A stretch of 64,000 nt of DNA, from the NCBI GenBank assembly GCA_000091205.1, contig AP006502.2, one strand, 5' to 3'. The notes under the pieces are model-generated. The model was not told the origin of the DNA. It did no database searches and worked only from the letters and a program-made list of their open reading frames with translations. This stretch comes from Cyanidioschyzon merolae (taxonomy: Eukaryota). This document shows positions 284 to 63,499 of this stretch, in pieces; the stretch's first letter is position 1; every line of letters starts with the position of its first letter. A program made the position numbers and the translations under genes.

Positions 284-820
284 ATGGTTTCGGTGCGACG
301 TGCGACGCCCGCTGACCTCTTGGCCATGCAATACTGTAACTTGCAATGTCTCCCAGAGAACTACCAAATCAAGTACTACATGTACCACCTGCTGTCGTGG
401 CCGCATTTACTCTACGTCGCAGAGGACCTAGACGGGAGCATTGTTGGGTATGTTCTTGCCAAAATGGAGGAAAGCCCCGGATCCACGGACGCGGGCTCCA
501 GTTCAAACACAGCAGCGACCTCTGGGGCTGTTAAACCGGTGCGTCATGGTCACATCACTTCGCTGGCGGTGCAACGGTCTCATCGAAAACTCGGTATCGC
601 GAAACGATTGATGTGTATCGCACATCAGGCAATGCGTGAGGAGTACAATGCTGCCTATGTATCGTTACATGTTCGGTTGAGCAACGTAGCTGCGCAGCAC
701 TTGTACCGAGACTCGTTAGGCTATCAAATCCATACCACTGAGGTTCGTTACTATGCGGATGGTGAGGATGCGTACGATATGCGGTTGTGGTTCTGTTCTG
801 ACTCGATCCCGAAAGCATGA
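284..820 (+). CDS. NAA10: N-alpha-acetyltransferase catalytic subunit (NatA Naa10/ARD1)
   Basis: Near-collinear match to Naa10, including MQ.CNL.CLPENYQ.KYY.YH and [15 protein letters not shown]. The ORF-track start at 86 is GTG; trimmed to the first ATG ([13 protein letters not shown]). Confidence 0.85.
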
Positions 821-1544
821 GTATTGAGCGCAATCAGTGCATGTTCAGGCAAGATTTGCAGCAAAGCAGCACCACTGGGGAACGAGCCGCTGTCCAACGC
901 TTTGTGAATGCTTGATCAAACGCTTAAATGGCTCAACGAAATGTCGGTGCATGAAGCTGTAGGTGCAGTGTGCAGACCAGCGAGACTCGAAGGGGATTGT
1001 GGTGGCCTCAGTGCAGTTCGCACTCGCATGCGGGGACCCAGCGAGCCTCTATGGCCTTGGAGCAACTGGTACCAACTCTTTACCATCGAGAATCGTGTCG
1101 TTTTTGTTTTGGTGTTGATTTGGGAACCGGGTACCCGACATATTATCCATGTCTTATGCCTGGAGTAAACAAATTCAGAGCCCGCGTCTACGTAACCAGC
1201 CTAGTGCTACCCGAAAATTCTGACAAGCGTCTTTATCGTGTATCAAGAGTTTCCGCACGAGGTTTCCAATGCGCTTTCGGACGGAGAACCGAAGCGATAG
1301 GCGTTCTGGTAGCTGTCGCGGGGGCATCATCGACATATGCTGAAAGAATAGAAACTCTGCTCTGACTAGCAACTCGATAACAGTTTCGTTTGACCTTGAT
1401 TGTAAGCGCAGAAATGGGGAAAAGTTTCAGTATCTCGGAAAGTTTACCTTTTAGGCGGAAGGTCCCGCGAGCCGGACGAGTCTTCGGGGCTAGCTAGTGC
1501 TTCATGCTTCCTCCAGTGGCGGGTTCTTTAAAGAAACCTGAGCT

Positions 1545-1910
1545 ACTCGTCCGTAACGCAATTCAATCTGGGACTAGGAGCGTGTATGCTGCGTCTGGGC
1601 GTCGCCCTGGTCGCAGTGGACGCCCAGTATATCGCACCGTGCCGCCGCAGGCAGTGCGTCTCTCTGCGCAGCTTCCAGGCTCCTAGAATGATTAAGTACT
1701 CCGACTCCGTGTCCGATGAACCACGCCTCGAGCCGACGCCCTCAGTGGTATGCCAAAGCCGTTCTGTCTCCGTGCAGCACCTGCTTCGGCGGTATATAAG
1801 CGCTACGGCGGGTGCTCAAAACAGCTAGTCGGCGCACTATAGAACATACGAAACGACCAGTATATCAGAGAGCATGTATGGGTGATAGAACTTGAAGGTA
1901 GATGCTTCAT
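1545..1910. repeat. ~370-bp dispersed repeat, copy A (paralogue of 13291-13665, ~70% identity, same orientation)
   Basis: Shared blocks include gctactcgtccg, cccagtatatcgc, ccgcaggca, gcaggctcc(c/t)agaat.atgat.tactccgac.ccgt, ctcgagccg, gccgttctgtct.cgtgc, acgaaacgac.a.tatatc and atgcttca. Confidence 0.6.
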
Positions 1911-2362
1911 GATGGACGCTTTCCCGAAAGCCATTATCCTTTCCGAATCCTCGGATCCATGGTCAGTCTAAACATTCTCTCATCTGAAAAGAATTCGACA
2001 TACGCTGTGTAAATGTTCAAAGCGAGCACCATATGAACTGGAACGCTACCAATGGCTAGAACGTGTGTCGAAGGAGACCTATTCATCCCGAGGAAGGTCT
2101 CGTGGGGTCTTCTCGGGCGCTCCGGCGCACGCGCCAAGCAAATTTCGAACCTCCGCTTGTGCTTATACAAGCATGGGAGACAAGCACTTCATGAACACCA
2201 CCATGACGAAGCTTTACCGCTACTAAACGAAAGTAGACTGGTTAAACTTGACGAAAGCGTTCAGGTTCCTTTGTGCAATTCATCAGACTGCTTACTTTTG
2301 GGTCCCGTCCCAGGTTTACGGCTGCGGAGCGAGCACTTACAAACGGGACTCATCCAGCGCGT

Positions 2363-4120
2363 ATGGCCCCCGAAAGTGCACAAGTAACCAGTTTCGACGC
2401 GTTCCTCCATAGTGTGAGTGCTTGGGAGCACCTTCTCGAGTCTGATGCTCAGGAAACAGCGCAGAAGCAACTGAACGTCCTTCGACGCTCAGTGCCGCGC
2501 CAGCGGACCCCGAACGAACCAACACCCAGAGACGCAGCACACGCCCTCGAGACACTCTGGCTGAAGAAACACGCTGCCCTGTGGTATCGCTGGACGCCGA
2601 CCCTATGTCAGGGAGTGCGAAACGGACGCGCTGCTTCCTGCTCGCTGCTGTGCTTCCTTTTCGACGGGGCGCAGCGTTTCCTGTACCCGCTCTGTGGGAT
2701 GGTACTCAAGGCGCCACGACGTGCGACACGCATGGAAGGAGCACCAAACGCAACCAGCACCATGAAGAGCGCTCGACAGCAGACGTTTGTGCCCATGTCG
2801 GAACGGTATCGGTTGCATCTTCAACTGGTCTACGATACACTGGTCGAAACGATGCAGGCGCAGCTGACCCAAGCTGCAACTGCATTGACCGGTATAGTCA
2901 GCAGGGGAGGTGTGGATTCCAGCACCTCGACCTGTCAGCTCATGCGCTGCCTCGGGGTCGTGGTGCAGAATACGCCATCACGCTGTCTCCCGAGCGCACA
3001 GCTCAAGACCGCCGGGAACCTGCTCTGGGACCAGTACGCGCTTTCACTTGGGCCAGAGCTTGAAACGCTTCGAGCAGCGGCCATCTCCTGTCTGAAAAGT
3101 ATTCATGATCGTCTACAAACCATACCGCCGCTGGAGCAGCTTTTAGCGAATCCGCTGCGCTGGAATGATGCGCACGTGGTTTCGTTCGTGGAAGCCATGC
3201 TAACACTACGCATGCGTCATCTGAGCAGGGTCCAAGAATCCGCACCCGACAGCACTGCCGTCGACGAACTGGTACTTGCGATGGTCGAGCATCATTTTCG
3301 AAGTGCATCGACGAGTCCAGCGCTGCGACTACAAAGCGCCCGTCTCTTGCGCTTGCTGTTGCGCTCGCGGCCATCGATCGCAAGTTCGCGTAACGCACTC
3401 CTGTTCCGCATGTTGAAGGATCCCTTCCACGCGGTACGTGTGGTTGCCATCGCCTGTTTGAGTCAGCCTGGAATTGGAGCCGCAGGCACGCCGCTCTTTC
3501 GAGAGCTCGAGGCGTTAACCGCTGACCCCATTGCATCGATGCGCGCCGCTGCGTGTACCGCATTAGGGCGGCTCGCGGCGGATCCAGGCGCGTTCATCCC
3601 TCAAACAGAACCTACGATCATTCTCGATAACGACTGGAATGCATTGAAAGGGCGTGCGATGGATCTTCTACTGAAGCGACTCGAAGAAGATCCAAATGTC
3701 CATGTTCGAGCAGCTGCCGCCTACTCGTTGAGCCAGTTCTGCACGCATGCAGAACGCTTGGCGGCGCGACTCCCCGAGAGGATCATCGAATTGGCGATTG
3801 ATGAACTTCGACGTGCACCATATTCGAGTCAAGCAAGCGCGTACTGTCGCCTTCTGGGTGCGTCCGTCCCGTCCGAAGCACAGCGAACACAGATCGTTGT
3901 GGTGATCGGGGATATTGTGCAGGGTGCACGTCGAAAGGCGCTGCGCCAACAGGCGATCCTGGCGCTGGCGAAGCATGTACGACCTGCCGACGGGGCGGCA
4001 CGCTGGTCGCTTGCACAGAAGCCGGACAACGAACTGGACCTGGATCAGTGTGGACGAAACGCTGCGCCAGCGGAAACGCCACATCAGGATGCGGTTGCTT
4101 CGAATCGGACGGGAGCGTAG
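2363..4120 (+). CDS. HEAT/ARM-repeat protein, function unassigned
   Basis: 585-aa ORF from the first ATG (the track start at 2273 is GTG). Repeated DP..VR.AA..AL helical repeats such as DPNVHVRAAAAYSL, DPIASMRAAACTAL and DPFHAVRVVAIACL. No specific family recognised. Confidence 0.45.
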   Translation: MAPESAQVTSFDAFLHSVSAWEHLLESDAQETAQKQLNVLRRSVPRQRTPNEPTPRDAAHALETLWLKKHAALWYRWTPTLCQGVRNGRAASCSLLCFLFDGAQRFLYPLCGMVLKAPRRATRMEGAPNATSTMKSARQQTFVPMSERYRLHLQLVYDTLVETMQAQLTQAATALTGIVSRGGVDSSTSTCQLMRCLGVVVQNTPSRCLPSAQLKTAGNLLWDQYALSLGPELETLRAAAISCLKSIHDRLQTIPPLEQLLANPLRWNDAHVVSFVEAMLTLRMRHLSRVQESAPDSTAVDELVLAMVEHHFRSASTSPALRLQSARLLRLLLRSRPSIASSRNALLFRMLKDPFHAVRVVAIACLSQPGIGAAGTPLFRELEALTADPIASMRAAACTALGRLAADPGAFIPQTEPTIILDNDWNALKGRAMDLLLKRLEEDPNVHVRAAAAYSLSQFCTHAERLAARLPERIIELAIDELRRAPYSSQASAYCRLLGASVPSEAQRTQIVVVIGDIVQGARRKALRQQAILALAKHVRPADGAARWSLAQKPDNELDLDQCGRNAAPAETPHQDAVASNRTGA

Positions 4121-10896: not shown

Positions 10897-11055
10897 CAGG
10901 TAGAGTGGGAGCCTGACGGGCTGTTTGCCGCACCAAGCGACGTTCTAAACTCGAACGACGTCGGGCGTGTACAGTAGTGGCGAACCGTACGCCCTGGACA
11001 AGAAGTCTTCAACCGAGGTGCAGACGCCTCCCCGTCTTTTTGGACCGGCTACCTA

Positions 11056-12801
11056 CTACTGATTCCAATTTTTCTCATATAATTCAACTTTTAGAGGTTG
11101 TCTACTAAAGTTCTCTCTTGTCCATTCTGGAGGTCTTTTCTCCAGCACCGCACATTTCCCTATATTGACAGCGGCGTTAACGTCACGGTTCACAAACTCC
11201 ATCCGTTTCTTGCCATCACTGGTTGTACTTCCTAATGCAAGTAGTCCACGAACTTTCGACATCCTTTCCATATGCTCTTCCGTCAGCGGTCCATACCTTT
11301 TTATATCCTCAGGGCTCCTCTGGCACTTTTCTATCCCGACCCCTTGAAGTGTGCACGCCACTTCATGGTGTGTATACGATGTGCGAACCTCACCTACAAG
11401 TATTGTAACGAAACGCCTTGCGCACTCCGTGTACGTTCTCGTCGTTGGAGCTGGTGTAGTTCCTTTTTGGGTCATCCAGTGTCCTGCTCCGTATGTTGCT
11501 ACGAGCCTCTGACCTTCATTCCCCTTCAAGGCGCTCAACTCATTGAAAAAATTCGCGAACGCCCCCTGCTTCCCACAATACAAATTCATTCGCAAACGAG
11601 CCCACCGGGGCTTGGCATACTCCTCCCACAGCGCATCCCAATGAGCGACGCGAACTTCCATAAACTCCCGAAAAGCTTTAAAATCCGCTCCTCGGCTTGT
11701 CACCTCGCTCAAAGCTTCCAGGTGCTCGTTCATTCCTGAATTCCACGTCTCTATTTTCTTCCTTGCATTCATGATTCCCGATTCTCGATAGTATCTCGCT
11801 CTCGAGAACCTCAAAAGACGCATGTCTTTCTGACGTAAGTTACCATCAGTGCCATCTTTCGCACGCTTCGGTGCTGCGATGGTTATGATATTTGTGCTTC
11901 CTGGGTCCGCACCAACGGCAAATTCGTTATCCTGCACTTTCTGCGTCTCAGGACCCGCCTCTTTTTTTTCTTCATGCTTTACCGCGTCAACGACGAAGTC
12001 GTTATCCTCCACCTCTTGCGTCGCAGGATCTGCCTCCTTCTCATCTTCATCCTTCGTCACGTCAACGACGAGGTCGTTATCCTGTACTTTCTGCATCGCA
12101 GGTTCCGCATCCTTCCCATCTTCATCCTTCGTCACGTCAACGACGAGGTCGTTATCCTGTACTTTCTGCATCGCAGGTTCCGCCTCCTTCTCATCTTCAT
12201 GGTTCGCCGAGGGCGGAACTGGACGATCTGTCTTCAACTGCCGATAGTGTACACACAACGCTACTCCATCGGTTTCGATCATCCTAGTGAACAACTTTTG
12301 TTTGCTCACTTTGAGACGTTTGAAATCGAAGATATTCTTCCAGTACGCCTCCTGGTTTTCACCGGAGAACTCCTTCCTGCTAACATTGAACTCCAGACTG
12401 ATCTCCTTAAAGATGCCGTAAAGGACGCCGGAGGCGATACTCAAAAAATGTGACTTGATGTTGTACATTGGAACCACGTTGAAGCGCTTACCCATCAGGA
12501 ACGCCTTCCGTCTCTCCCACTCTTTATTTGTCTCCTCACGCAGCTTCATCTCTGCCTTGCGTTCGAGCTCTCGGTCCAGAAACACGAAATAGCGCAGGAC
12601 GAGGCAATAGTATCTTTCCTTATGTTTTTTCAACTCTGATATCTTGTCTGTTGGATTCGCCAACCCCAAGACTGCACGATGCTCTCGTATAACCGCACGG
12701 ATGACAGAAGCTTCATTCGTGCTCCTGCGTGACGCCTTCTCATAGACGAATTCGATCTCCTGCTCATGCTGGCGATCGTTCGTGATGCCATTGATAATCG
12801 T
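11056..12801 (-). CDS. TnpB/Fanzor-like RuvC nuclease (OrfB_Zn_ribbon type); no ATG start and likely decayed at the 5' end
   Basis: RuvC-I-like [15 protein letters not shown]. TnpB TS..C-type motif [14 protein letters not shown]...C. RuvC-III hallmark [17 protein letters not shown]. The open frame runs from a stop at 12802 to 11056 with a TTG at 12669 and no in-frame ATG before residue ~40. Confidence 0.6.
11926..12210. repeat. tandem 75-bp repeat (3.8 copies) inside the Fanzor-like ORF
   Basis: Units at 11926, 12001, 12076 and 12151 all start gttatcct. They encode acidic 25-aa units ([25 protein letters not shown] x4) just N-terminal of the RuvC-I motif. Copies 3 and 4 are nearly identical. 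Confidence 0.85.
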
Positions 12802-13257
12802 CTATATCCTCTTGGGAGAGATGCCCGGGTAGAGTGCAAACACGGCGCGTATCATGAGACGTTCGAGGTTCATTGTCAAATCGTTCATCAGGTTTCTGAG
12901 GTACTTTTCGCCCCGTAGTTGTAAATATTCCCGTCATCCTTGTATCGAGTACCGTTGGGGCGGGATTCTGCGTAATTTTAGTGCAGGGCATGCACTCGCT
13001 CATTTCTCCTCGACGTTTCCCTCGTACCAAGCATCAGGTGACGAATATAGGTCTTGTCGAAGAACTCGTCCGGAACCTCGACCGTTTCCATGTGCGTCAC
13101 GTCGCGATACATCTCCCTTACCAATTGCATCAGTCCTGACGACGCCTTTACAATACTCTTGGAGTACGAATCGACACGGTTTCTGATCGCATCTCGCAAC
13201 TTTTCCTTGTACGGATCCTTGATATGTGCAAGAAGGTTCCCCAGGCTTGTGGTTCAT
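12802..13257 (-). pseudogene. frameshifted ORF fragments directly upstream of the Fanzor-like frame (probable decayed N-terminal region)
   Basis: Three minus-strand ORFs in three different frames abut and overlap (13257-13000, 13199-12978, 13030-12764). A single frameshift near 12790 would join ...[14 protein letters not shown] to [12 protein letters not shown].... Confidence 0.4.
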
Positions 13258-13290
13258 GCTCCCCCATTGTCTAGTGTTATCGTGAGATCT

Positions 13291-13665
13291 AAGCTACTCG
13301 TCCGCAGTGCAGTTCATTCTGGGACCGTGAACGGGATCATTGGGCGTAACGCTGGTCCCAGTTGACTCCCAGTATATCGCTTCACTGCCGCAGGCAATGA
13401 GTCTATCTTTACAGTTTGCAGGCTCCCAGAATAATGATGTACTCCGACCCCGTATCGAGTGGGTCACCCCTCGAGCCGGCGCCATCTGTGGTACGGCAAC
13501 GCCGTTCTGTCTGCGTGCGGCGACCGCATCGGCGCTTTAGGCGCCATTGCGCACTACCAGGGCAAGCAATCGGCACACGATTGAACGTACGAAACGACGA
13601 TTATATCCGAGAAGGAGTACGGATAATGTTACTTGGAAGTAGGGTATGGATCGATGGATGCTTCA
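13291..13665. repeat. ~370-bp dispersed repeat, copy B (paralogue of 1545-1910)
   Basis: See copy A. It lies immediately 5' of the Fanzor-like ORF fragments. Local GC-rich hairpins gcggcgaccgc and ggcgctttaggcgcc. Confidence 0.6.
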
Positions 13666-15735
13666 CCGCGCACTGAAACAAAGAACAACGAAAAGAAAAG
13701 GCGTACAATCGGAGAAGGTTGGCCTCTGAAAGTGTGTTGTCAACTAAAAAAACTTCCATGCGCCAAGCAAGGCGATGCGGTAAGTTCGTTCGGACACAGC
13801 TACGCATTGATCAAGGTGGCAAGAGAGAATGGTGCTGTAGCCGGTTCGTGTGCGGAAGTTGCGTTCGGTCTGGTCCCTGCGGATTTGAGGACAGTGTCCC
13901 TTCATTACCGCTCGTAGGGACGGTGTGGAAACTTCACTTGATGTGGCTTGATTTATCGAATTTCTTAGAGAACATCCGGTAGGGAGTGGATTGATTACAA
14001 GTCAGTCTTGTAGAGAGCGTTGGCTACGTTCTGTTTTGGGTATGTGTATGTGATGTACAGGATAGGGAATACTGGGCATGTGCTTCATTCACTTGCTGAC
14101 CGTAAAATGACTAATTCGTAAACTTCATACCTGTTTTGCATGCGAGCACTAAGATCTTCACATCATTCCGCAACGTGTCTGCGATCGACCGAAAGCATGC
14201 TTTCAAGTACCTGCATGAGAAACAAAATAAAACGGATTGCGCCGGCACACGAGGTCCAGAGTTCACTGGTACGCGTATCGAGAGAACACAACGCAGGCGC
14301 TGTACCAAGGAGATTAAAATGGAACATTGACCTGCGTTCTCTGTCCTTACGTTTTGGTGATTCGCAAGTTTCTTATCCGATCTACAGCCTCGATATTCCA
14401 AGTGCAGCAATAGGGGATTCCACATTCACATCTCGTTCTAGGATTTTCGGCGGTGGTTTCGAAGTGGCTGCATCGACGCAGCCCCGCTCGAATGCATTCG
14501 ATCACCGGCATCACGGGGATTTGTGGCGTCCTCTCAAATAGATTCCTACAGAACCGATACGATTGTCTATTTCATGGGTGCGAGCCTCGGTTCTTTCCCT
14601 GACTTTACGTACAGGACGCACAAACCATGCATTCTTCAAGATTTCGATCTCACTCTTTCAAGGCAACACCTAAGCAGAACGACATGCTTCCCGAGGGTGA
14701 TGAGAAAAAGAATATGGCTTCGTCCTTTGAGTACTTGTTCACAAGCTCCTGCCAAAAGTTCATGGAACTTCTTGCGTCAAATAATCGATTCCATTCGAAC
14801 GACAAAGCCCATTTTCATCGTTGCAAAAGAGGAACCAGTATTCAACAGCAGCATGCTAATTTACGAGAGGTATACGCCAAGAGGCCCTTGTCTTCAAGCT
14901 TTGCACTAGAGAAAAGTCCTGGACTCGCTGCGCACGCATTATAGCAATCGCTACCACTAGAGGCCGAGTCACCAATTCTGGAAAAGGGAACGTAAGCGGA
15001 TTGCAATGCCTCGACTTGATCTCCGACCTGGATTTTCCGGACGACACTCGTTTCATCATTGACAAAATCGCGTTCCATGAAGCCTTAATCGACAGGAACA
15101 GCTCACGCTTGCTTGCGCAACGGACAGGGTAATTGTCAATGGCCTCACCGAGGAAGAGCCCATGGATGTAGGGTACGACACCTTTGTCTCGCGGACCTAT
15201 GACGGCACTGAGGGTACCGTCTGCACCCGTCATGCGCACGCATCGAGCGATGAAGCCAGCGTTCGCGCGCTCCAAGACGGCTCCCTGAGGCGGACGGCTG
15301 CTGGTCTTATGCGAACCCCTGAGAACAATCAAGTGCCACCGCTGCGAAGGGCGCACAGAAGCTGTATTCAAAGACGCTTGAAGTGTCAAGCGAAGCCTAG
15401 ATCGCAATGACCATGAGTGCATGAAACGCGTCGACAACGCCGGGAATCGGCGTGATCAGAAGTTCAACGCTGCCGTGTACTTCCTTGGGCCTGTGACAAC
15501 GCCACTGGAGGATACAGAGACATCGGCATATTCAGAGCCGGAGCTTAGAGCGCGAGGAAACGGAAGCAGTCACAGAAACAGCGTGCCGCGCTTCGTGTCG
15601 GTGAGAAACGGAAGAAACCAAAACTGTAGAGAGCACATCCGAACTCGCAAACCAGACCTTTTCTATTCATGTCTGACACGAGTGTAACTGCCTGTTTGTG
15701 CTGACCCTGCACGTGTCGCGCTCGAGTCGCTCACG

Positions 15736-15740
15736 AAAAA
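15736..15740 (-). terminator. Pol III T5 terminator downstream of tRNA-Val
   Basis: aaaaa on the plus strand is TTTTT on the minus strand, ~10 nt 3' of the tRNA end. Confidence 0.5.
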
Positions 15741-15749
15741 GGGAATTTG

Positions 15750-15823
15750 TATCGGCGGCGCGACTCGAACGCGCGATCTTGTGCGTGTGAAGCACACGTC
15801 ATAACCAACTAGACCACGCCGAC
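15750..15823 (-). tRNA. tRNA-Val (anticodon CAC)
   Basis: Reverse-complement GTCGGCGTGGTCTAGTTGGTTATGACGTGTGCTTCACACGCACAAGATCGCGCGTTCGAGTCGCGCCGAT+A folds as a cloverleaf. Anticodon stem TGTGC/GCACA, loop TTCACAC. T-arm GCGCG-TTCGAGT-CGCGC. Close to eukaryotic tRNA-Val-CAC. Confidence 0.85.
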
Positions 15824-16001
15824 ATCAATGCAACTTTCCGTGAAATTCATATATAAATACCGTTTGCGTGTGCTGCTGGCGGCCGAGTCGATGGCCGGCG
15901 CGTTCCAGCTGTCTCGCCGAATTCGTTCGCGATGATGGCAGCGGTTTCGCGTTCCAGCTTGAACCTTGAACGCAGAGGTGCTTGCACCCTCACAAAGTCC
16001 C

Positions 16002-22959: not shown

Positions 22960-24756
22960 CCGCAGAAGACATCCCTGGCAACGCTGGATGCTTCAGGGAA
23001 AATCGTTGCATCGCTTCCACAAGCTCTGGACATGTTGCAGGACGTATGGTTGCGGCCTCATGACGTGAGGGTGCTGCATGTCTCGATCCGGCTTTATCGG
23101 TCATCGGATGGAAAGAACCGTCATGTCGACGCGTTTCTCATGTAGATCCTGGCGCGTCATGCGAAAATCAGCCAGCGCAGTCGATCTGTGACTCCCGCGT
23201 GTGCCTGCAACCGAGCCAAACATGGAAGTGAGCAGTCGTGGGGATCTCGCTTGCAGCCCGCGAGTCTGAGGAGCACAAGCATCGCGGCAACTGGGGGCGT
23301 TTCTCTGCTTCCAACACCGTTCTATGGCGTAAGATGGCGTCTATATTCAGCAAGATCGAATCATGGAACACTATAATCGTCTTCCGTCTGCGAAGGGATA
23401 TCGCTGCCGGGGCATCTGTAGGGTGCTCCCAACTTGCTCGATTGCCGAATTCGAACGACATCCGTGTCAGGAACCGGGCGAAAATCCATTGTCGTTTCTA
23501 ATCAGGCAAGTGGGTTTTCACTACAGGTCTGTAACGCTTCAGCAGCATGCCCACATGAAGCGTTCAACGATTACGTCGAAAGTTCACTCTCCAGAAAAGC
23601 AGCAGGACGCTCCAGAAGCACGAGTGTTCACCGGGTGCTGATCGAGGCGCTCAAGTCTCGGTGCAGAGCGTGCGCACGCGCTGACGTATGCTCCACTGAA
23701 AGCGATCCCTGTAAAAAGCGTCTTGTCTCGGTCCGCGGCCATTTTCCATCCGGAGAGAAGAGACAGGAGCCTCCCGCAACATATCCCGTGAGATGTACCG
23801 AGCAGCTGTCGAATGCCGTTTCGCGACTGGCCAGAAAGCGAGAAGGATATGTCACGCAAAGGGAATCGATTAGTTTCCATGAGAAGCTCAGTGGACGTTC
23901 GTCATGAGCTTGTGAAAATGTATTCAGTGGACGACGTCGAGCATTTTCTTTCGTCTATTCAGCGTCGCGAATTGCTGCGCCTCACGAGTTACCTTGAACC
24001 AGAACGATCGAAAACTTGAAAAATGCGCAAACTGTGTGCGCTACACGTAACAAATGGAGCAAGTTGGAGGCTGGTGCGTATGAACTGCATGATAAGATCG
24101 GTTATTTTACAAACCCTCGTTTGAGGGCGTTGCAAATCATCTTGATTCCCCTGACGTCACGAATTCCACCAGCGAAACGTCGATTGATGCAATCCGAATA
24201 GACGACAGAGAATCCCAAAGCTGCGTGTGAGTTCTCAACACCTTACGAGTGCACATCGAACGTCTAGACTCGAAGTCTAAATAAAGCATACAAAAATGTC
24301 GACAGGCACAAACAGAGCGAGCAGCCCAGTGATTGATTTTAATCTGACACGGGTATAGCGCTGCTGCATCTCCGATGACGAGTCGCCTTGTCGCCGCTCC
24401 CGAGACTCCGCGTCCATGATCGTCAAAAGGCGATGTGAAAGCCCTGCAGCTTTGTGGATTGATTCGGAGCGATCCACGCAAGTTGCGTACACGACATGAA
24501 TCTAGGTGCATATGTAGCATCAGCGTTCTCATCGCTAGCTCCACTGCATTTCATATGTGCACCGATTCGGTGGTCGATGCGAAGCGACTGGCTGTACCTC
24601 GAGATGGACTCAGAATGCGGTATTAAGAGCGCGACGTTCGTTCCGCCCGCGAGCGCCTCGCGGTTTTCTGCAGCGAGTCCAATAAGCGGCTTTGGCTTCG
24701 GGTTAGCAGGCACTCGAAAATTGCGTGAATCCAAGACGGGAACGTGGTTCAGCGCG

Positions 24757-24958
24757 AATGCAATGCGAGAATTATCGATATGGAGGCGTGATGATGCTAC
24801 GATGATGCGCGAACTTTTCTGGAATGCAACATCGCACTGCGACCACACAGGTGCCAATGAATGCAACGCGCGAATTATCGATAGGGAGGCATCATAATGC
24901 GGCCACGATGCGCGAACTTTTCTTGAATGCAACATAGCAATGCGTCCGCACGAATTCC
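24757..24958. repeat. ~100-bp tandem duplication (2 copies, ~85% identity)
   Basis: Copy 1 at 24757-24855 and copy 2 at 24856-24958. Both contain gcgagaattatcgata.ggaggc...gatgcgcgaacttttct.gaatgcaacat.gca.tgcg.c..ac. Confidence 0.7.
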
Positions 24959-36976: not shown

Positions 36977-39430
36977 TTTGGAGCTGGGCATCGAAATCCT
37001 TCAATACGATCGTCAAGCGTGCACGCTTTGTCACTTGTGACGTTCATGCTGGCAACTCATGACGTGCAGCAGACAATATGCCGTGATCGCTGGACAGCGT
37101 CGATATGCTGGACTGGCTCGCGACTGGCGCAGGACGCCGAGAACGCCCTTGTCGCACGGCGGCATGCGTACCCTGCACCCTTCTCAGATGCAGGTGCAAT
37201 ACTGAACTGCTTGCTCTGTGTGTGCTTTTCGATTTTCTCGAACTTTTTTTTCGATGTATGACTTGGCAGACCAAATACAGCAATGAAGGCAAACGGGTTC
37301 ATTCATAATTTTCGGACACCTGGTTGTTTACTGCTGGTCGTGCGTTAGACGTTTTGCCGCTGGAATTCGTTACGTCACTGGAATCAGGATGATTGGCAAT
37401 GCTTACGAAAAGTGTCCGTAAAATAATCGATATCAATATCCAGTGCAGACTTAAAAGCCCCACCTCTTTTCCCTACATAGAGCTTGCTCAGAATATGTAT
37501 TTTTCAGACTTTCGATCTTTATCACAAAAAGCAACTCGTGAGGGTAGGGATTTCCACCGCTGGACTGACGACCACGAAAAACTCGACTCTGTTCCTGGTC
37601 GACTTGTTCACAAACCCATACCGAAACTTCACAGCACCTCTCAGGTCAACTGATAATCTCCGCCGTTCTGAACCCAAATCATGCTCTGCTGGTGGCCATC
37701 GGTGAAACGCCATTCGACAACCGAGTGAACCCTCGAACGGGATCTTGTCCAAGAGGCTCCCGTCTCTTCTTTTCGCATCGAAAGGGGTCATTGGCTCGGA
37801 CTTGGGTCACCGCTTTGCACGGAGAATGCATAGCGGGATCAGCAGTTGCCGAATGGATCTCGAGCCTGAATTTCCGTCCCGATTACGCAGTTCATCGTGG
37901 ACAACATCGCGTACCATATGTATCCTCTATGGAGTCGAACGGCGTGCGCAGCAGACAGAGTACTCGGCGAGGGGATGCCCCAGAAGAAGGCCTGTGATCC
38001 TAGGGTACGGCACTGGGCGCGGAAACCGAGCAGACCATCGAGTCGCGCCTGCTGTAGCCGCGAGCGGCATGTGCTGGGCGCTGAACCGAACGTTCACGCG
38101 CAACAGAGCATCGCTCGGAGCGTAAGCTATGGTGGACATGTGGGAACACTTGCCCCAGTCTAGAGTCATCACTATAAAGCGAGCACAGATGCTGTACGCA
38201 AAGAAGATGGAAATCGCAAGCGAAGCACAGAGCGCAACGACCGTTTGTGAATGAAATGCGTCGACAAGAGTTGGAATCGGCACACTCGGGGCTCGAACAT
38301 CACCATGAATATCCTTCGAGTGCTGTCGCAAGAGCTGGATGGATACCTGCGACTGACAGATTCAACGCCGGAGATAAGAGAGACGAAAGACCATTCGAAG
38401 AAAAGCTCCCATTTGCTTTTGTTGATTGAAATGGGAAGCGATTCGAAGTTGAATGTGGACGCCCTAGTTAGCCAAGTGCACCCATTCTATTTGATGCTGA
38501 CGTGGGTGTAGCGCCTCGACTATCCGCTGCAAGCGGTCTGCTCTGCACCGCGCGATCAGCAGTGCGTGAAATAGTCCATGACACGACTTCAGCAGGAAAC
38601 ATGGATTCGTAAGCTGCTCAGGGTACAGGTTCCCGCTCTTGCCCGGCAATGTCGAGCCAACCCGTGCGGTATTGAGATCAATCCAGACCTGCAGCATCTC
38701 CGCCGAATACCTAGGTTCATCGGGTGTGTGGTTCCGGTACACATACCGTCTCCAGCTTCAGTGCCGTGCTACACGAGCGCGTTGGAGATTGGGTGCAAGG
38801 AAAGCGATCCTCCTTGGAAACGAACCAAAAAATATACGGAACGCATCGGCCTCCGCGAACGACCCAGCTTGCGACCCGCTGCAAAGCTTCTAGCGCCCTT
38901 TACAGGAACAGAAACACTTTTCCCGAGCTGTTTTCTGAAAGGAAACCCTCTTCCCGGTATGCCTCACTGCGAAGCGGGCCACCGGGCAGAAACTTCCCTC
39001 CCCGGACACTCCGTCGGAATGAGCGGATGCCCACTGCAGCTTATCGCTAGGCACTCATCGTGTAGGATCGATGCGTCGGAGCGGAATCCCGGGATGCGCC
39101 ACTGATTTCGGCAGCTACGATGAATCCCGCCGCTCCGTTCCATACCCCAAAGAAAATGCGCATGCTGCAGACCGCTCTCTCCGACGGGGCCAGAAATTCC
39201 ATTCTTCGGATAACTGTCTGAGAACCGAGCCTCGCGCCCACGCTTGCGGTGAAGGTATATGATGCGCCGTCGCCGCCGCTGCAGTCGCTATCACGCAAAG
39301 ACAGAGCGGCTCCGAGGCGCAGGTACGGTCATCCGCATGCGCAGTACACTGTTCGGGCGTGGCGTACGTAGTGCTGTGCATTTCAGAGTCGAGCGCTGGG
39401 CCCGCCATAGTGCTCGCTCGCCAACGAGCT

Positions 39431-52329: not shown

Positions 52330-55300
52330 GAGCTCGACGCTGAACTCCTGGGGAACTGTGTACGGGGCAAGAACGCGAACCTGCTCCCTGCGCCACACGC
52401 CAGCAGTTCGCAGCAACAGGTGGCATGGTGTCTAGGTCATGGGGACTGGACTCTACCGCGGCTCGATCTAGACATTCCGCAACAGACTTGGAACTATGAA
52501 CGTGATGGGGTATAAGTTGAGCGATATGATCCATACAGAGAGCGGAGGAGTACGCGAAGCGCAGCCATTGCGTAACGGACGACTTGAATCGATCGATATG
52601 AGCGGGTAACTAATCAGAAATGCGATCGGAATACTGAGCGAGTGATGATTCGGGTGCGAGTATTCCCCCAATAGACTCCAACATGTTCATGTGATTGGGT
52701 AACTCGTCGGGGGTATGGTGCGAATAGAGAGCCAAAGAGTGCGAAAGTGTTTCTGGTGATGATTCCCCAATAGAAGCAGGAGCGTGGTAAACTTTGTGTC
52801 CTCGTAGCCAGACTCTTATGCCGAATGCTTGACATTTTTCGAGAAAGCTTCAGAGCAGCTACTGCTCATGCTCGCAACGCGATAATTTTCCTGCTCTGGA
52901 GCGAAGAGGAAACACTCGAGAGCTAATGCGATCACAAGGGAACTTGAGCATGCACCGCATACACTCGGATTGGATGGTGTTATAGACACAGCGTGCCGGC
53001 ATTGTACGCAGAGCAGCAAAATCCCGAATACCTGCACCAGCACGCACTTTTCGTTTCCGTTCGTTTCTCCGCGCAGGTATTCAAGAAAACGACTGTCTCC
53101 TGTAGAGTGGAGAACGTTTGCCAAAGTGCTTCATGCTTTCAGTGGTAGCGTGCAAGCATACTGGGCTCACTTCCACGAATTCGTCATGCTGCAGTAACCA
53201 GGTAGATGAATCGCGCTTCTCGTTGTCCTTGTTCTGAACGTGGCGTACTGAAAACAGATCCCGTTGAATTCTATCTACAGAAATGTCTCCTCGTGAGCAA
53301 AGCCCATTCCATTTTTTTCTGAGAAATTCTATAAAACAGGCCGGAGCATATGACGCTTCCATGTCGTTGATGCGAACGGTGATGACGAGAAGCGGACAGA
53401 CAGAGAAAAACAAACCTCTATGCGGGACCATCGCGTATTGAACAAGACGCATTCGATTACGCCATGAAAGAGGAACGCATGCTGTACCAGAGACAGGTTT
53501 TCGTGTTCCTCACTGAGACCTGTTTCGTGAGAAATCTTAGACCCGTGTATGGGTGAACAAAGAGCAGCAATCCGTTGTTCTTGAACGAGATACAAGCGAG
53601 CATGGTGGCAAAAAAAACTGCCCTGGTGGCGATTCAGTCGATTGGTCACGTACCAGTCGCCAGTCGGACAGAATCGTTGAACACTTCCTCCTTTGTCAAA
53701 TCATGCCGTGTCGTCCACTTCGAATATTCTCCTGTCCCGCTCTTAGACAGCGTCAGTTTCCTTCACTCAGAAACTATCACAGATCATGCAGTTGAGACTG
53801 CGGTTGAGCTCCTCTTCGATTTGGATTATTCTCCCTGGCTAGATCCATTCAAAGGCGTCTTTTCCGTTTGCAAACGCCATTTCTGCGCACGCCGATCACT
53901 AGAGGAGTCCTTTGCATCCGCAAAACCGAAAGATTCAGTAAGGCATGAAGAATCGCGTAACTTGTGAATCGAGAACATCGCTCCTAGTCACACTTGCCTT
54001 CACGCTCCTTGTCAAGCGACCCATCGGACGCGTTCCGTACGCAGGGCTGCTAATTATCCACGTTCTTCGGAATTTTTTCAATGAAATCTTCGCAGAGCAG
54101 CATATATGATGCTCGGGGCTGTGGACGCAAATCGGTTTGGTCGAAGGTTCATAGATTCACATACACGAACACGCTTCCAAGCATCCCTTGAAGCGCTGCC
54201 GCGCCGCCTCGGCGACGGAAACAAATGTAACCGTTCAGGTGCCAGAAAGCATCGAACCGAGCTCAATAGTCATACGCTGTTCAATGTCGTGCAATTCAGT
54301 CTGCACACCCTATAGGCGTTGCACACTTAGCTTACTAGATCAGATAAGTTGAGAATAGTGTGCGGAATTCCTGGGCTGTAACCGGAGGCAAATAATCAGC
54401 TATGGGCCGGAGAGTTCCCAGTGGTTGCCAGTTCGGATGCGACGTCACGATAAAGACGCGAGTTGTTTCAGATCGTCCAAGCTCACTAGCTGCCCTTGGC
54501 CTCGGACGGACGGGTGTCGTATCCAAACGATACGTGAAACTTGATGGCTCCTTGCGCTGCATCTTGCAGTACAAGGTTCTTATGAAAAGAGTCCTCCCGA
54601 TCAGAGCAGACTTCCTCCCAGAATCCGAGCGCCCTCACCCCCTCAAGCATCTGTTCTGTGTGTGGTCCCGGTATCTCAGCTCAAGGCCGATGATATCAGC
54701 GCAGAGAGTTGCGAACTCTATGAACTGATCATTGAGTTGCACCTGATCACTGCGATTGAAAATGTAGCACTGGGACAACTTTAGAAAAGATCATTGGTGG
54801 AGCTCGTTCCCGACTTCTCGTGTACAGGATGGCAATGAAAAGAAGTTTGCATGAACGATTGAGACCAACAGAATATCCATATGTATGCCTCTCGTGAGAA
54901 CTACGCCTCAGTCGAACAACGAGACTCATTTTCAATCCTTCACCATCGATGAAGGGCAAGACACTCCGGTGGCCGTGGATCCCACGTTGCGTGGCGTTAT
55001 AGCCATCGCCATGCCTTTCAATCAAGGGTGACGCAGCACAAATTTGAACGGAGTGCAGCTGAAGCTGAAAAACTTCCACAGAGCTCGTTGTCGTCCGGGG
55101 TCGGACATGTTGGACAGCAGGAGCCGACGAGCAAATGGAATCGCGGCGTCAGGATCCATCTCGATGCTCTGAGCATCGTGTCCTGCAGAGGAGCATGCTT
55201 AGTGCGCTTCATTCTGAGAGTCTATGCGCGTCGAAGTTGCTCACATGATCGAAACCTGGCAGGAATGCATGGTATTGCGCTGGAGTCGCCCAAAGCTTTG

Positions 55301-56908
55301 GGTTTACGAACACAGGAAATGAGTATTCTCAAAATTCTTCTATGATTTCGAAAGGGAAATTACAGAAAGTTCACTTCGGTTGGTGGCAGCCGCTGACGCG
55401 CTACATGCTGTAGCGCGTCAGGATCGCTCGCCTGCTCCTTCAACAAGTGCGTACCATGAGTCATGCATCGATTCTATATGATTCCTTTCGATGCGTCCGG
55501 GACGACGTACAAGCATCACGAGCACGCAGGTATTGGTAGGAAAGAAAGCGGTGGTTCAGCCCCGGATGCACAAGATGGCGTGCGGCAAGCTTACCGAACG
55601 TCAGATGACGAGACGTTCCTATGTATGAGGCTTGATTCGATGCGATACGAATAGCAACCATGCACACAAGAACGTTCTACATCGAGGCTTGAACACCTCA
55701 ATCAACATCTGGGAACGAGTTGTACTTCCGGAGCGTACTGCGGCTTCGTGTCGAGCGATCATGAAACGTACTCGTTTCGTGCTCAGTATGAGCATTGTGC
55801 TGAATTGCTGCAGACTTTCGATGAAAATCTCGCCGGTCAAGAGAGATGGCGCAGGATTCTCGTCCAGAGCAAGGCACTGGTACGAAAAGGTCAGCAATCC
55901 AGAAACGCTGGTGCGCCATCCACAGCGATACCGGGAACGATATTCCTCGGTTAATGATGTACGATAATAGTATTCTCTTATTCGATGTTGCTGGGGTTTG
56001 TTGATGATCACGCTTTCGTGCAAACAGCGCATCCTTCGAGGACTCCATGCAGATCCCGGACTCCGCTCGTGTGAAAATCGGCGCTGCAACGTCCCATGTA
56101 GTGAGAAACTGCCCAGATAGAGCGTCCGATTTCGCTCAACTTGGTGTACACGAGTAGTTTCAACGGCAGGCATGGTGCACCAGGCAGCCTCGTCCAGCCT
56201 CTAGCCATACTATTGCGAAACCATTTATACAGGACAGAACAGCGCTCGCCCGGAGCCTAGTCTTGCGGCTGTAGACCGCTGAGCAGGACGATCGTGTGCA
56301 ACGACTTGAACGAGCGCGCCGGGTAGAGCTGTAGCATTCCAAGTGCGTTTGACGTTAAAATCCCATTAGTTCCTGGATATTCATCGGTTCAGTGCAATCC
56401 GGTGGTGCATATACGATCGTTGCGGGGCGATACTACACAGGACGCGTCTTGCGAGGACAAGCCATCTGGTCTCGTATGGTGCTATTTTGAACCTGCTTAA
56501 TGGTCTCGATGAAATTCGTGGCGCTCGCGGGTACGATATCCCACAGCAGTCATTCGCTGCATCAGGCTAAAGGTTTACAGTTTCGTGCGAAGCTACGTGC
56601 GCCTTGGATGAAGAGCGCACTCCGCGTCAATCACCACGGGTTTCACCCTCTAGAATACGATACATCCTATGCATTCGTTTAATATCGACAGTTCAGAACG
56701 AAGCTCGATCCCCGTGTTGCACACTCGATAGAGTAAGAAGCGCACAGTTGCGTCAATAGCGATATGCGTGATGCTACCCCTAACGACGCGAGGTGCACAG
56801 CGCATGGACATTGTCGTCCACTGATAGCGCTCTGGTTGTTTCAGCGCCGGGCGCTTCTGCCATAATGCGCGCCCTCGGGCATTGAGCAACGAAACGCTCT
56901 GGCACGAG

Positions 56909-58138: not shown

Positions 58139-60883
58139 CAGCAGCGGCCGAGCTTAGCCCGAAGCGCAGGCCCCGAGGTTGCGCTGTGTGCTCAATGCTT
58201 ATGCCGCCTCCCAGGTGCGTCTGTTGTGCAAGCGTGTTACGGGACGCCCAGAACCCTGGAAGCGCGCACGTCGAAGCGGCCAGCCCTTTTGGTCAAGTCC
58301 CGCTTTTCAAGTACACACTCTTCCGTGCGACGTGTTCGCCTATGCGGTACTGGCCAATACGAGATACGCCCTGGTCGAAGGCAACCGCTGCTGTCTGGCA
58401 AGCTACGCAGCCGTGATGGCGCTTTCGGTACGGCACGGCACGGCATGGCACGGATACCATCGTGTCGACGGTGCGTGTCTCGGTGGCTGCTGTCTCATCT
58501 GCATGTCACGTGACATTTCGTGCTGCGCAGGAGATTGCCGGCATTGCCTTCGGTGCCGGTACCTCGATCGTTGCCTGCATTCGTCCGGCATCTTTTCGGG
58601 CCGAACTTACGTGAATCTACCCAGGGAACTCTGAGATACACGTTAAAGCTGGCGCTCCTTGCTACTGTCACCAAATGGAGCATTTGTGAGCTTTGTTTCC
58701 GCGACTGCTTCGTTTTCATCTGCCTTTTCTCTGGATTTAAATGCGATGGGCTCTTCTGTCTCTCCAGCTCCGTTGTCAGCAGTTGAAGGATGTTAATGAC
58801 AGCGTTCGAGTCCCGACATAAGTGCCTCCAGCTGTTGTTGGTGCATATCATGCACAGGCGGCAGTTGTTATCCATGCCGAGCATTTCATTTTCAACTTGT
58901 TTTGCATAGCATCGGTGTGCATTTTACAGCGGTGACACCCGGTTGTGGTCGGGAGTTCACCTGGGTCCATCACAGCTCCTCCTCCGAGCATCGCCTTTTG
59001 GAACATAAAGGCTCAAGGCATCGCGCGGTATATGCGCCTGAACTATGCAGAAGGCCGCCATGGATGACTTTCTTCGTTTCTGGACGTGGTACCGTCCCTT
59101 ACGATCAGTGGCTCCCTCTGGGCGATACGTTCGTCGCGTACGCCGCCGGATGCTCGCTCATGGGGCCGCTGTTCGAAACGACGGAAGATTTGTGGAACGC
59201 GATGTCGTTCATGATGATGAGAAAGGCACCGGAAGGATTATCCATGCCGGAGACAACGAAAAAGTCAGATCCGTTGATGCGCCCTTCGCGCTACGCGGTA
59301 GCAAGCGTTCCACGCGAAGCGACCGATGGAATGACGAAGATGCGAGTCCCAGGCCCTTTTCCGTACAAACAGAAGAGACGATTGCCCCTGGAGGCATGTC
59401 TGGGGCGGTGTATCTTGCGGGCACGGAATACGGGGCTCCGACGGCCACAAAGAGAAGCGGAGCACCCTGTCAAACGGAGCCCCGTGTTTGACGTCACAAG
59501 TTCAGTGAACTTTTAGCATGGGCGTGTCAACAGGTCATCAAAGGACAAAGTCGATTGATTCTTGCTCGCCAATTCAGGGGCGCGATATGCTACGGCCTCG
59601 AGTTGCGTCCAAGCAGAACTATCGAATAGTTGAAGAATGCGTGATTTGCGCGTGCTTGACGTAAAGAAACGAAAGGTTTCGTTGCTTGTCCATATCCACT
59701 GAAGACTGGTATCGGTTGCTTCACGGACGCTAGTTCGTTGGCGTCACGAACCATCTCGATTCCACTTGCAGTAACGTATTCCAGCGGGAACGCGTCGAGG
59801 GGGCCTCTCCTATACGAGAATCGAGGATCCTAAAACTAAGTATGTATCCTAAAACCGCAACTGTTGCACTTCTAATGTCGATGTCGTACATCTGCAAGCA
59901 AGTTCCGGAACATCGAATGCCAGGAACAAAGCGAGCAATTCAACATTCCATATCTATCTGACACGGGATAGCATCTAAGGCACGACGCTACCACGCGTGC
60001 AACACGTTCCAGTACGCACAGCGCTATCCAGTACCATGCCAGATGGCGACCGACGGTCTGCATTTCGTGTGCGTTCAGGTGCAGCGTGCCGACGCCGATC
60101 GCACGGTCCGACCAAGATGCACAGGAACGTTCGGGTGCAATACGTCATCGGAAACATCGCATCGGTACACAAACGAGATCACCATGTGCTTCCCTAGGGT
60201 CGAAACTTTTCCCAAACGCCCCGTTTTCTTCCGTGTTCAATCAGGTCGCAAAGTGTCACGCAAGCAAGCTAGGCGGCGTCCTCGCGCCGCAGACACATGC
60301 AAAGGTGCTCAAGCGCGTCACTCTGAGCCTCTTCGAGAAGCTCTGCACGCCTGCGTCTACACCCTCAACTGATGCTGTGAATCATTTGCCACTGTCGCGA
60401 TTCCAAACGCACAAGCCACGCGTTTTCACAGGTTGAAATCATTGAATCTAACCGAATGCCAAGGTGTGCAGGTACTGCCTCTAGTGTCCGCGCAAGTCGC
60501 AGCTCCGCTACGGTCGCTTCTCGGTATGCTCAGCGTCAAACCCCTGTTGCCTGCTCGGAAAAATCCGTGTTTCGGGACCATGAGATCGTTCTCGCGAACG
60601 CTAAGATCGCTGATCACCCGAAAGTTTCAACATTCGGGACGGGATGCAAGCGTTAGACCCGAAGAACTACAGCATGGAAAAAGTTATCCATCAGTGCCTG
60701 GCACATGATCCACCGTGCCGGCTGATCGGTCGCGCCGATCCGCTCAACGGCAGGACGTTCGTGCCGCCCGGTGGCGTTTCCAGAATCCGGTGTATAAAGC
60801 GCCGTTGCCCAGACAAACTCGACCTGGCACTCAGGTGACCGGACAATTGTCGATTTTAGGGCAACTATAATTTTGCTTGACTT

Positions 60884-63426: not shown

Positions 63427-63499
63427 CACCGCCAAAGGGGCTCGAACCCTTGACCCGTGGATTAAGAGTCCACTGCTCTACCGACTGAGCTATGGCGGT
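63427..63499 (-). tRNA. tRNA-Lys (anticodon CUU)
   Basis: Reverse-complement ACCGCCATAGCTCAGTCGGTAGAGCAGTGGACTCTTAATCCACGGGTCAAGGGTTCGAGCCCCTTTGGCGGTG. A-box TAGCTCAGTCGG. Anticodon stem GTGGA/TCCAC with loop CTCTTAA. B-box GGTTCGAGCC. Close to eukaryotic tRNA-Lys-CTT. Confidence 0.9.

Follow-up and report, generated by a model that had tools for sequence, protein, structure and literature searches.

Two diverged repeats of Cyanidioschyzon merolae and their probable place in the TE-N2_CMe/CMe-1A transposon family

Genes and repeats of the locus

The stretch of DNA analysed here, called the window below, comprises 64 kb of the Cyanidioschyzon merolae genome. It includes a GNAT acetyltransferase gene (Naa10) followed by genes coding for a HEAT-repeat protein, a mitochondrial carrier, FBPase and a RING/B-box protein, an order that is kept in the Cyanidiales contigs L001 (Cyanidiococcus) and L002 (a second relative). 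The HEAT-repeat ORF (2273-4117) is 53% identical to a Cyanidiococcus protein, and its product falls into a 90% cluster containing CMT359C of C. merolae strain 10D. The spacer between the acetyltransferase and HEAT genes is 1453 bp long in the window vs 690 bp in L001. It carries one copy of a repeat (copy A), for which nhmmer found no homologue in the orthologous intergenic regions of L001 and L002. On this sequence comparison, the longer spacer with its repeat looks like a lineage-specific insertion.

The second copy of the repeat (copy B) is located 11.7 kb away. According to MAFFT and blastn, the shared stretch covers 1493-1921 in A and 13245-13663 in B, both in the same orientation, with 70.4% identity over 432 bp (E=5.9e-49). 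This bears out the initial annotation, which had described a same-orientation, ~70% identical pair at 1545-1910 and 13291-13665, the shared stretch being slightly longer than given there. Copy A had also been described as solo in the Naa10-HEAT spacer, and indeed no Fanzor homology adjoins it. Sequences flanking the two copies are unrelated to each other, and a sensitive self-search revealed no third copy in the 64-kb window. When A was compared with B by tblastx, all six frames scored nearly alike, and the reading frame is broken by indels of 6, 2, 2, and 15 nt, so the similarity exists at the DNA level and a coding explanation was ruled out.

An ORF of 581 codons (11059-12801, minus strand) lies to the left of copy B. 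Its translation has the RuvC-I and RuvC-III signatures of TnpB/Fanzor proteins (GADPGSTN ...), with the Fanzor motifs D (GADPG), TS (RTSYTHH), and RD (NRDVNAA). The 96 homologues of this ORF are mostly hot-spring metagenome paralogues, 60-80% identical and carrying PF26935; the distant homologues also carry PF07282 (OrfB_Zn_ribbon). The RuvC motifs and the homologues together confirm the Fanzor-like gene proposed earlier. It was caught neither by Pfam, searched with the ORFs and with six-frame translations of 13600-16000, nor by phmmer against PDB. Copy B had been said to abut the 5' ORF fragments of this gene. It does abut the 5' side of the gene; the gene, however, is to the left of B and not in the fragments to the right.

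The region to the right of copy B (14300-15600) belongs to a second degenerate dispersed repeat, also found at 23760-24365, 37270-38440, and 58690-59910, in both orientations and with ~68-76% identity (tblastx, blastn). As it directly adjoins copy B, it is easily mistaken for the Fanzor gene. We rejected that assignment: the 14300-15600 region has no Pfam match and no protein homologue, and is a different repeat. The longest ORF of this second repeat (58800-59513) has neither a Pfam match nor a homologue among 5.8 billion proteins. A distant Fanzor-like relic, with 26% identity to the CMe-1 consensus protein in a 340-aa alignment (E=3e-14), is located at 54783-55736 on the plus strand and lies outside the CMe-1A DNA family discussed below. 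Two neighbouring 93-bp direct repeats, 84% identical and 103 bp apart, are found at 24756-24951. Coordinates of the main features are collected in Table 1.

Table 1. Features of the window relevant to the repeat pair; "consensus" refers to the published CMe-1A consensus
Feature	Position	Strand	Basis
13-bp direct repeat, left member TCGACATATGCTG	1330-1342	.	Read from the sequence
Copy A, probable complete solo TE-N2_CMe	1343-1984	-	Consensus 2-636, 81.5% over 644 bp, E=1e-177
13-bp direct repeat, right member TCGACATACGCTG	1995-2007	.	12/13 identical to the left member
Defective CMe-1A copy (copy B and Fanzor ORF)	~10937-13753	-	Consensus alignment
CMe-1A 3' end: Fanzor ORF tail and terminal hairpin region	10937-11165	-	Alignment of 12 copies
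Fanzor1 (TnpB-like) pseudogene body	10967-13235	-	Consensus 1080-3137, blastn 87.4-87.7%
Fanzor body, part 2	10967-11979	-	Consensus 2124-3137, 87.7%
Extra tandem copies of a 75-bp unit (consensus 2117-2196) in the Fanzor ORF	11907-12206	-	Repeat family D1 and repeated consensus matches
Fanzor body, part 1	12135-13235	-	Consensus 1080-2193, 87.4%
Copy B, probable 5' module of the defective CMe-1A	13241-13663	-	Consensus 65-494, 73.9% over 433 bp, E=4e-69
T-rich 5' extension of copy B	13664-13753	-	Common with L019, absent from the TE-N2 consensus
tRNA gene	63427-63499	-	Rfam, 71 bits; sole Rfam match in the window

Correspondence with TE-N2_CMe and CMe-1A

CMe-1A is a Fanzor1 transposon of C. 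merolae with a consensus of 3169 bp (Bao and Jurka, 2013, Mob DNA 4:12, PMC3627910). It has about 150 copies with ~80% identity to the consensus and lacks terminal inverted repeats (TIRs), while its target-site duplication (TSD) was not settled and no class was assigned to it (PMC3627910). The 5' 635 bp of CMe-1A are 95% identical to a separate non-autonomous element, TE-N2_CMe, which has about 70 copies; CMe-1A is the only Fanzor family listed for C. merolae by these authors (PMC3627910). Our literature search found no later paper mentioning TE-N2_CMe.

The CMe-1A consensus (Additional file 2 of PMC3627910) was aligned to the window by blastn. In view of the matches listed in Table 1, A and B very probably are members of one C. 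merolae transposable element family described in 2013, with A being a solo TE-N2_CMe and B the 5' end of a dead CMe-1A copy. The element family as such is already known. The initial annotation had offered, as one of its hypotheses, the terminal sequence of a Fanzor-carrying element with A as a solo remnant; this was essentially correct, B corresponding to the CMe-1A 5' module and A to the stand-alone TE-N2_CMe. The identification of A was made through the CMe-1A consensus, by way of the published statement that TE-N2_CMe equals its positions 1-635 (hereafter the module). Identity of 70% is expected between copies this old, A and B having each diverged by 20-27% from the family consensus.

Copy A comes from the same organism as TE-N2_CMe and matches the first ~635 bp of CMe-1A over its full length (consensus 2-636 vs the published 635 bp). 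Like the published element, it shares its sequence with the CMe-1A 5' end, belongs to a dispersed family of ~80% identity to the consensus and has no TIRs. The only difference, and nothing of substance, is that similarity of A to the family runs ~25 bp past consensus position 636. In consensus orientation, A is antisense to the plus strand of the window. Its end at AGAAACT (window ~1343-1350) is common to two copies found in the metagenome contig L018, A' and D, and past ~25 bp beyond that end the flanks of the three copies are unrelated. All three are thus discrete elements with reproducible ends and no Fanzor part. On one side, their common sequence extends 150 bp farther than that of A and B. 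The possibility that this extra stretch of A (1343-1493) is the 3' end of a Fanzor element, A being an LE + RE deletion derivative, was rejected, since in L020 the stretch is contiguous with the rest of the module.

A 13-bp direct repeat surrounds copy A. Its left member is homologous to the family consensus at ~645-657 and therefore the repeat is not a clean TSD; moreover, the motif is inverted in copy D. AAAGAAT / AAAAGAAT are present at the two inner ends of copy A. Together with the 13-bp repeat they possibly constitute an insertion signature. A repeat search found no terminal inverted pair in the three copies, in agreement with PMC3627910.

The copy of CMe-1A present in the window is strongly rearranged. 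Copy B and the 10937-13235 region align to the consensus with 74-88% identity, and the encoded protein is CMe-1 Fanzor1, with the motifs GADPG ... RD(V/F)NAA. Compared with the published element, it lacks consensus positions 1-64, which are replaced by a T-rich end, and positions 495-1079 (585 bp), including the ATG at position 906; it also has frameshifts and extra 75-bp units. By tblastn, the window matches aa 59-723 of the 734-aa consensus protein, spread over three frames with two frameshifts. As aa 1-58 and the start codon are deleted and the frame is broken twice, the gene is a dead pseudogene, and no intact Fanzor1 ORF (D ... [TS][TS] ... zinc finger ... RD) is left. Homology to the 3169-bp consensus nevertheless includes the Fanzor1 ORF, and this copy is a defective family member rather than a member of a different family. 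The T-rich extension is also found in L019 (window 13561-13753 vs 13666-13860 of the L019 reverse complement, 72.7%) and is a subfamily-specific end.

The 75-bp unit encodes a 25-aa acidic repeat, and the number of units varies among L019, L020, and L027. Strain variants of the window CMe-1A copy are found in L005, L006, L014, and L016, with protein identity of 94-96%. In these four, the 581-codon ORF changes frame near aa 119 (window ~12440), which it does not do in the window copy.

Further members of the family were collected by scanning metagenome contigs with a two-block pattern and from the loci around Fanzor paralogues (L019-L029). The pattern scan recovered strain variants of both window loci, 98-99.5% identical. 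A scan of viral contigs gave no matches. Beyond the window, copies are present in L018 (A', D and a partial copy E), L019, L020, L025, L026, and L028, with a fragment in L022. In L018, A' is 96.6% identical to A, and D is full length with ~63-66% identity to the consensus. Overall, at least 11 distinct copies or fragments occur in ~330 kb of the window and related contigs, as befits a dispersed multi-copy family.

Whether the copies always accompany Fanzor genes was a question raised with the initial annotation. Of nine distinct Fanzor loci examined, six have a part of the module on the 5' flank of the Fanzor core (consensus ~650-3169): the window, L019, L020, L025, L026, and L028. The module also occurs solo (A, A', D) and is absent from the Fanzor copies of L022, L024, and L027. 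Module and core are contiguous in the full-length copies of L020 and L028. The L025 copy matches the consensus from position 494 on, so that only 494-636 of the module is present. In L019, L022/L024, and L027 the cores begin at consensus 648-670 and have other sequences upstream. A head-to-head arrangement is found in L026 (7979-11135) and L028 (5767-11410), where the consensus-1 end of an inverted TE-N2/CMe-1A faces the core start (consensus 660) across the same 23-bp spacer. These copies show the module to be a discrete non-coding unit, dispersed and having an end that is reproducible, which occurs solo or joined to a Fanzor core in direct or inverted orientation.

Blocks shared by the pair, possible RNA structure and the 3' end of the element

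Block-wise conservation between A and B had been noticed in the initial annotation and taken to fit a functional structured RNA or conserved element termini better than neutral decay. The pair does have an excess of identity runs of at least 10 nt, with 7 against a shuffling expectation of 2.8 (P=0.006); its longest run, of 13 nt, is unremarkable (P=0.6). However, the blocks are not kept in the family. Seven independent copies, 18-37% diverged from the published consensus, have no invariant run in common that is longer than 4 nt (P=0.32), and the blocks listed earlier are altered in copy D. Rates differ mildly among sites in these copies (variance 1.58 vs 1.16; 97 vs 76 fully conserved columns). 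The blocks thus belong to this pair and not to the family, and are mostly the chance run structure of the pair combined with mild rate heterogeneity.

The small GC hairpins named in the initial annotation do exist: GGCGC-TTTAG-GCGCC in B has a counterpart GGCGC-TGTGG-GCGCC in copy D of L018. A consensus structure of the whole module finds little backing in the folding models. The structure conservation index (SCI) is 0.30 with z -1.9 on the plus strand of the window and 0.27 with z -0.7 on the Fanzor-sense strand (column shuffles). The RNAalifold covariation terms are positive, that is penalising, for both three (+3.4) and six (+5.0) copies. On the predicted structure, which was derived from the same sequences, 85.9 vs 83.5% of cells are paired, shuffles being the lower, with 14% left unpaired. 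Double-changed pairs number 14 vs 8.4 in shuffles (8 out of 500 shuffles reach 14), a comparison biased by the method for the same reason. The modelling therefore lends weak support to a conserved RNA structure of the module. A few small GC hairpins may be kept with changed pairs, and these could equally be transposon DNA signals. Together with the excess of compensated pairs, they leave room for a structural constraint acting on DNA or RNA.

The initial annotation had also considered an independent ncRNA or a SINE-like family, here taken as a structured RNA gene family or a retroposon with no relation to the Fanzor element. Copy A of the window and copies D and A' of L018 agree with this idea, being solo, away from Fanzor genes and with a common reproducible end. 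Still, Rfam contains no relevant family: the tRNA gene was the only match of the whole window at the gathering threshold, and at E<=10 the two copies gave nothing but a chance-level SNORD48 (15.8 bits vs the gathering score of 36). ARAGORN found no tRNA-like head in the module, and neither it nor Rfam reported a Pol III head derived from tRNA, 5S or 7SL. No A-rich or simple-repeat tail was seen. With no block of 5 nt or longer invariant across the copies, low structure conservation, and the module contiguous with the Fanzor unit in L020, L028, and the published consensus, we regard an RNA gene or SINE as very unlikely. Dispersed fragments with no convincing compensatory changes, which the initial annotation had named as evidence against its own RNA reading, are largely what was found.

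The TnpB and Fanzor systems reportedly possess an omega RNA (reRNA). In characterised systems it overlaps the ORF at its 3' end, together with the element's right end. The initial annotation suggested the repeat to be such a guide RNA scaffold, with copy A as a solo guide-RNA gene. Like an omega RNA, the module is non-coding and linked to the gene of a TnpB-family nuclease inside a transposon, several loci display this physical linkage, small hairpins are kept in several copies and compensated pairs are in slight excess. The position of the module, however, is opposite: it occupies consensus 1-635, while the ATG is at 906, which puts it ~270-900 bp upstream of the Fanzor start codon, at the 5' and not the 3' end. 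It is not confined to the nuclease strand, being inverted in L026 and L028, it is dispensable in many copies (absent from L022, L024, and L027), and no convincing conserved structure was found in it. The 5' location, the varying orientation and the absence from three Fanzor copies do not fit a guide RNA scaffold, and we give this assignment hardly any credence.

Conserved pairing was instead found at the 3' end of CMe-1A. An alignment of 12 such ends has a conserved long-range pairing between CAGUAGUGG and CCACUACUG, a conserved terminal hairpin of the TTCGA type and a stem whose pairs have changed while its loop, ACUACUGUACAC, is invariant. The alifold z-score is about -3 against column shuffles, which is better than that of the module. 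By analogy with known systems, the CMe-1A 3' end (~10937-11165, minus strand) is a candidate for the omega RNA and for the element's right end, and it is here, rather than in the 5' module, that a guide RNA should be searched for.

Proposed history of the elements and rival explanations

We propose the following scenario. Copy A would be the result of insertion of the non-autonomous TE-N2_CMe (~635 bp) into the Naa10-HEAT spacer, while the copy B module would represent the 5' non-coding end of a ~3.2-kb CMe-1A whose only gene codes for the Fanzor1 (TnpB-like) nuclease. An internal deletion of 585 bp took out the stretch that joined the module to the Fanzor start codon; with the frameshifts in its ORF as well, this CMe-1A copy is dead. 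The module may act in cis as a terminal and upstream region with transposition signals, probably also carrying the Fanzor promoter or leader, and may be mobilised in trans by another enzyme. The guide RNA would be expected to come from the 3' end of the element and not from the module, as in characterised Fanzor and TnpB systems.

One could also suppose that no mobile element is involved and that a local segmental duplication of unique DNA left this pair behind. In favour of this, A and B have the same orientation at a distance of 11.7 kb, and A and A' of L018, 96.6% identical, share ~25 bp past the element end. But the flanks of A and B are unrelated, many further copies are found among unrelated genes of other contigs, and the published copy numbers are ~70 and ~150 (PMC3627910). 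Such dispersal refutes a local duplication, which we consider practically out of the question. A weightier alternative accepts the transposon nature of the repeat and concerns its origin: TE-N2 and the Fanzor core could be two mobile units, with CMe-1A being a composite that arose from their repeated adjacent landing. This could be brought about either by a preference for sites where both units share a junction motif containing GTCGA, or by rolling-circle-like 3' read-through of TE-N2 capturing the core. Several observations are in line with a composite. Upstream of cores that start at consensus 648-670, the loci L019, L022/L024, and L027 have sequence that is different or unrelated. In L026 and L028, an inverted TE-N2 abuts the 5' end of the core, and the 23-bp spacer is the same in both loci. 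The 3' ends of TE-N2 and CMe-1A alike have a T-rich run and then a GCG-rich motif, and A is flanked by the 13-bp direct repeat. In addition, the module is more diverged than the attached core both in L019 and in the window, where copy B is 26% and its Fanzor core 12% diverged from the consensus. Because B is more diverged than its core, and cores occur with other or no 5' modules, CMe-1A may be composite rather than one ancestral unit. Against this, module and core are about equally diverged in L020 and L028, which fits transposition as one unit, as assumed by Bao and Jurka (PMC3627910). Only about ten junctions were seen, and the ends and duplications read from them are provisional; they are compatible with a decayed single ancestral unit as well as with a composite of two mobile units. 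A composite origin is a possibility to be kept in mind, though we rate it as the less probable course.

A more far-reaching version is that TE-N2 is an independent mobile unit which repeatedly pairs with the 5' ends of Fanzor cores in either orientation, instead of being a mere deletion derivative. It draws on the identity of the 23-bp junction between L026 and L028, the existence of cores that carry different 5' modules, the shared GTCGA-type motif, the 13-bp direct repeat around A and the small hairpins kept with changed pairs. This is speculative and we consider it rather improbable. If true, it would imply an HUH/rolling-circle-like or recombinase-type mechanism for a family left unclassified since 2013, with Fanzor as a captured helper, and the ends and target duplication of the family would be defined.

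Helitron, Helitron2, and Replitron-N offer a comparison here, since they have non-autonomous derivatives sharing one end with a gene-carrying element (PMC3627910; PMC10288648). The likeness lies in a short non-coding element that shares its terminal region with a longer gene-carrying relative and has no TIRs, in hairpins near the ends and short direct repeats at or near the copy A termini, and in variable 5' modules on a constant 3' part. Unlike Helitrons and Replitrons, the TE-N2/CMe-1A family has no Rep/HUH, helicase or recombinase gene found linked to it. Helitrons have characteristic end signatures, 5' TC and 3' CTRR with an A|T target. These are not evident in TE-N2/CMe-1A. A link to Replitrons was rejected, as Replitron proteins are reported to be absent from red algae (PMC10288648).

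Returning to the family assignment, its practical consequence for annotation is that both stretches should be masked as TE-N2_CMe/CMe-1A and not entered as a new RNA, and that the 581-codon ORF should be recorded as a Fanzor1 pseudogene. C. merolae has a large and old Fanzor1 family whose guide RNA apparently has not yet been mapped. The junction types described above provide a concrete start for a whole-genome census that could address the class and mechanism of CMe-1A and TE-N2.

Some of the loci examined have further peculiarities. In L027 (5452-7982), two partial cores meet in a palindromic junction. The cores of L022 and L024 have in common a different upstream module in place of TE-N2 (~110 bp upstream of consensus 670). 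An ORF coding for a reverse transcriptase (RVT_1) is located just upstream of the core in L022 (814-2710).
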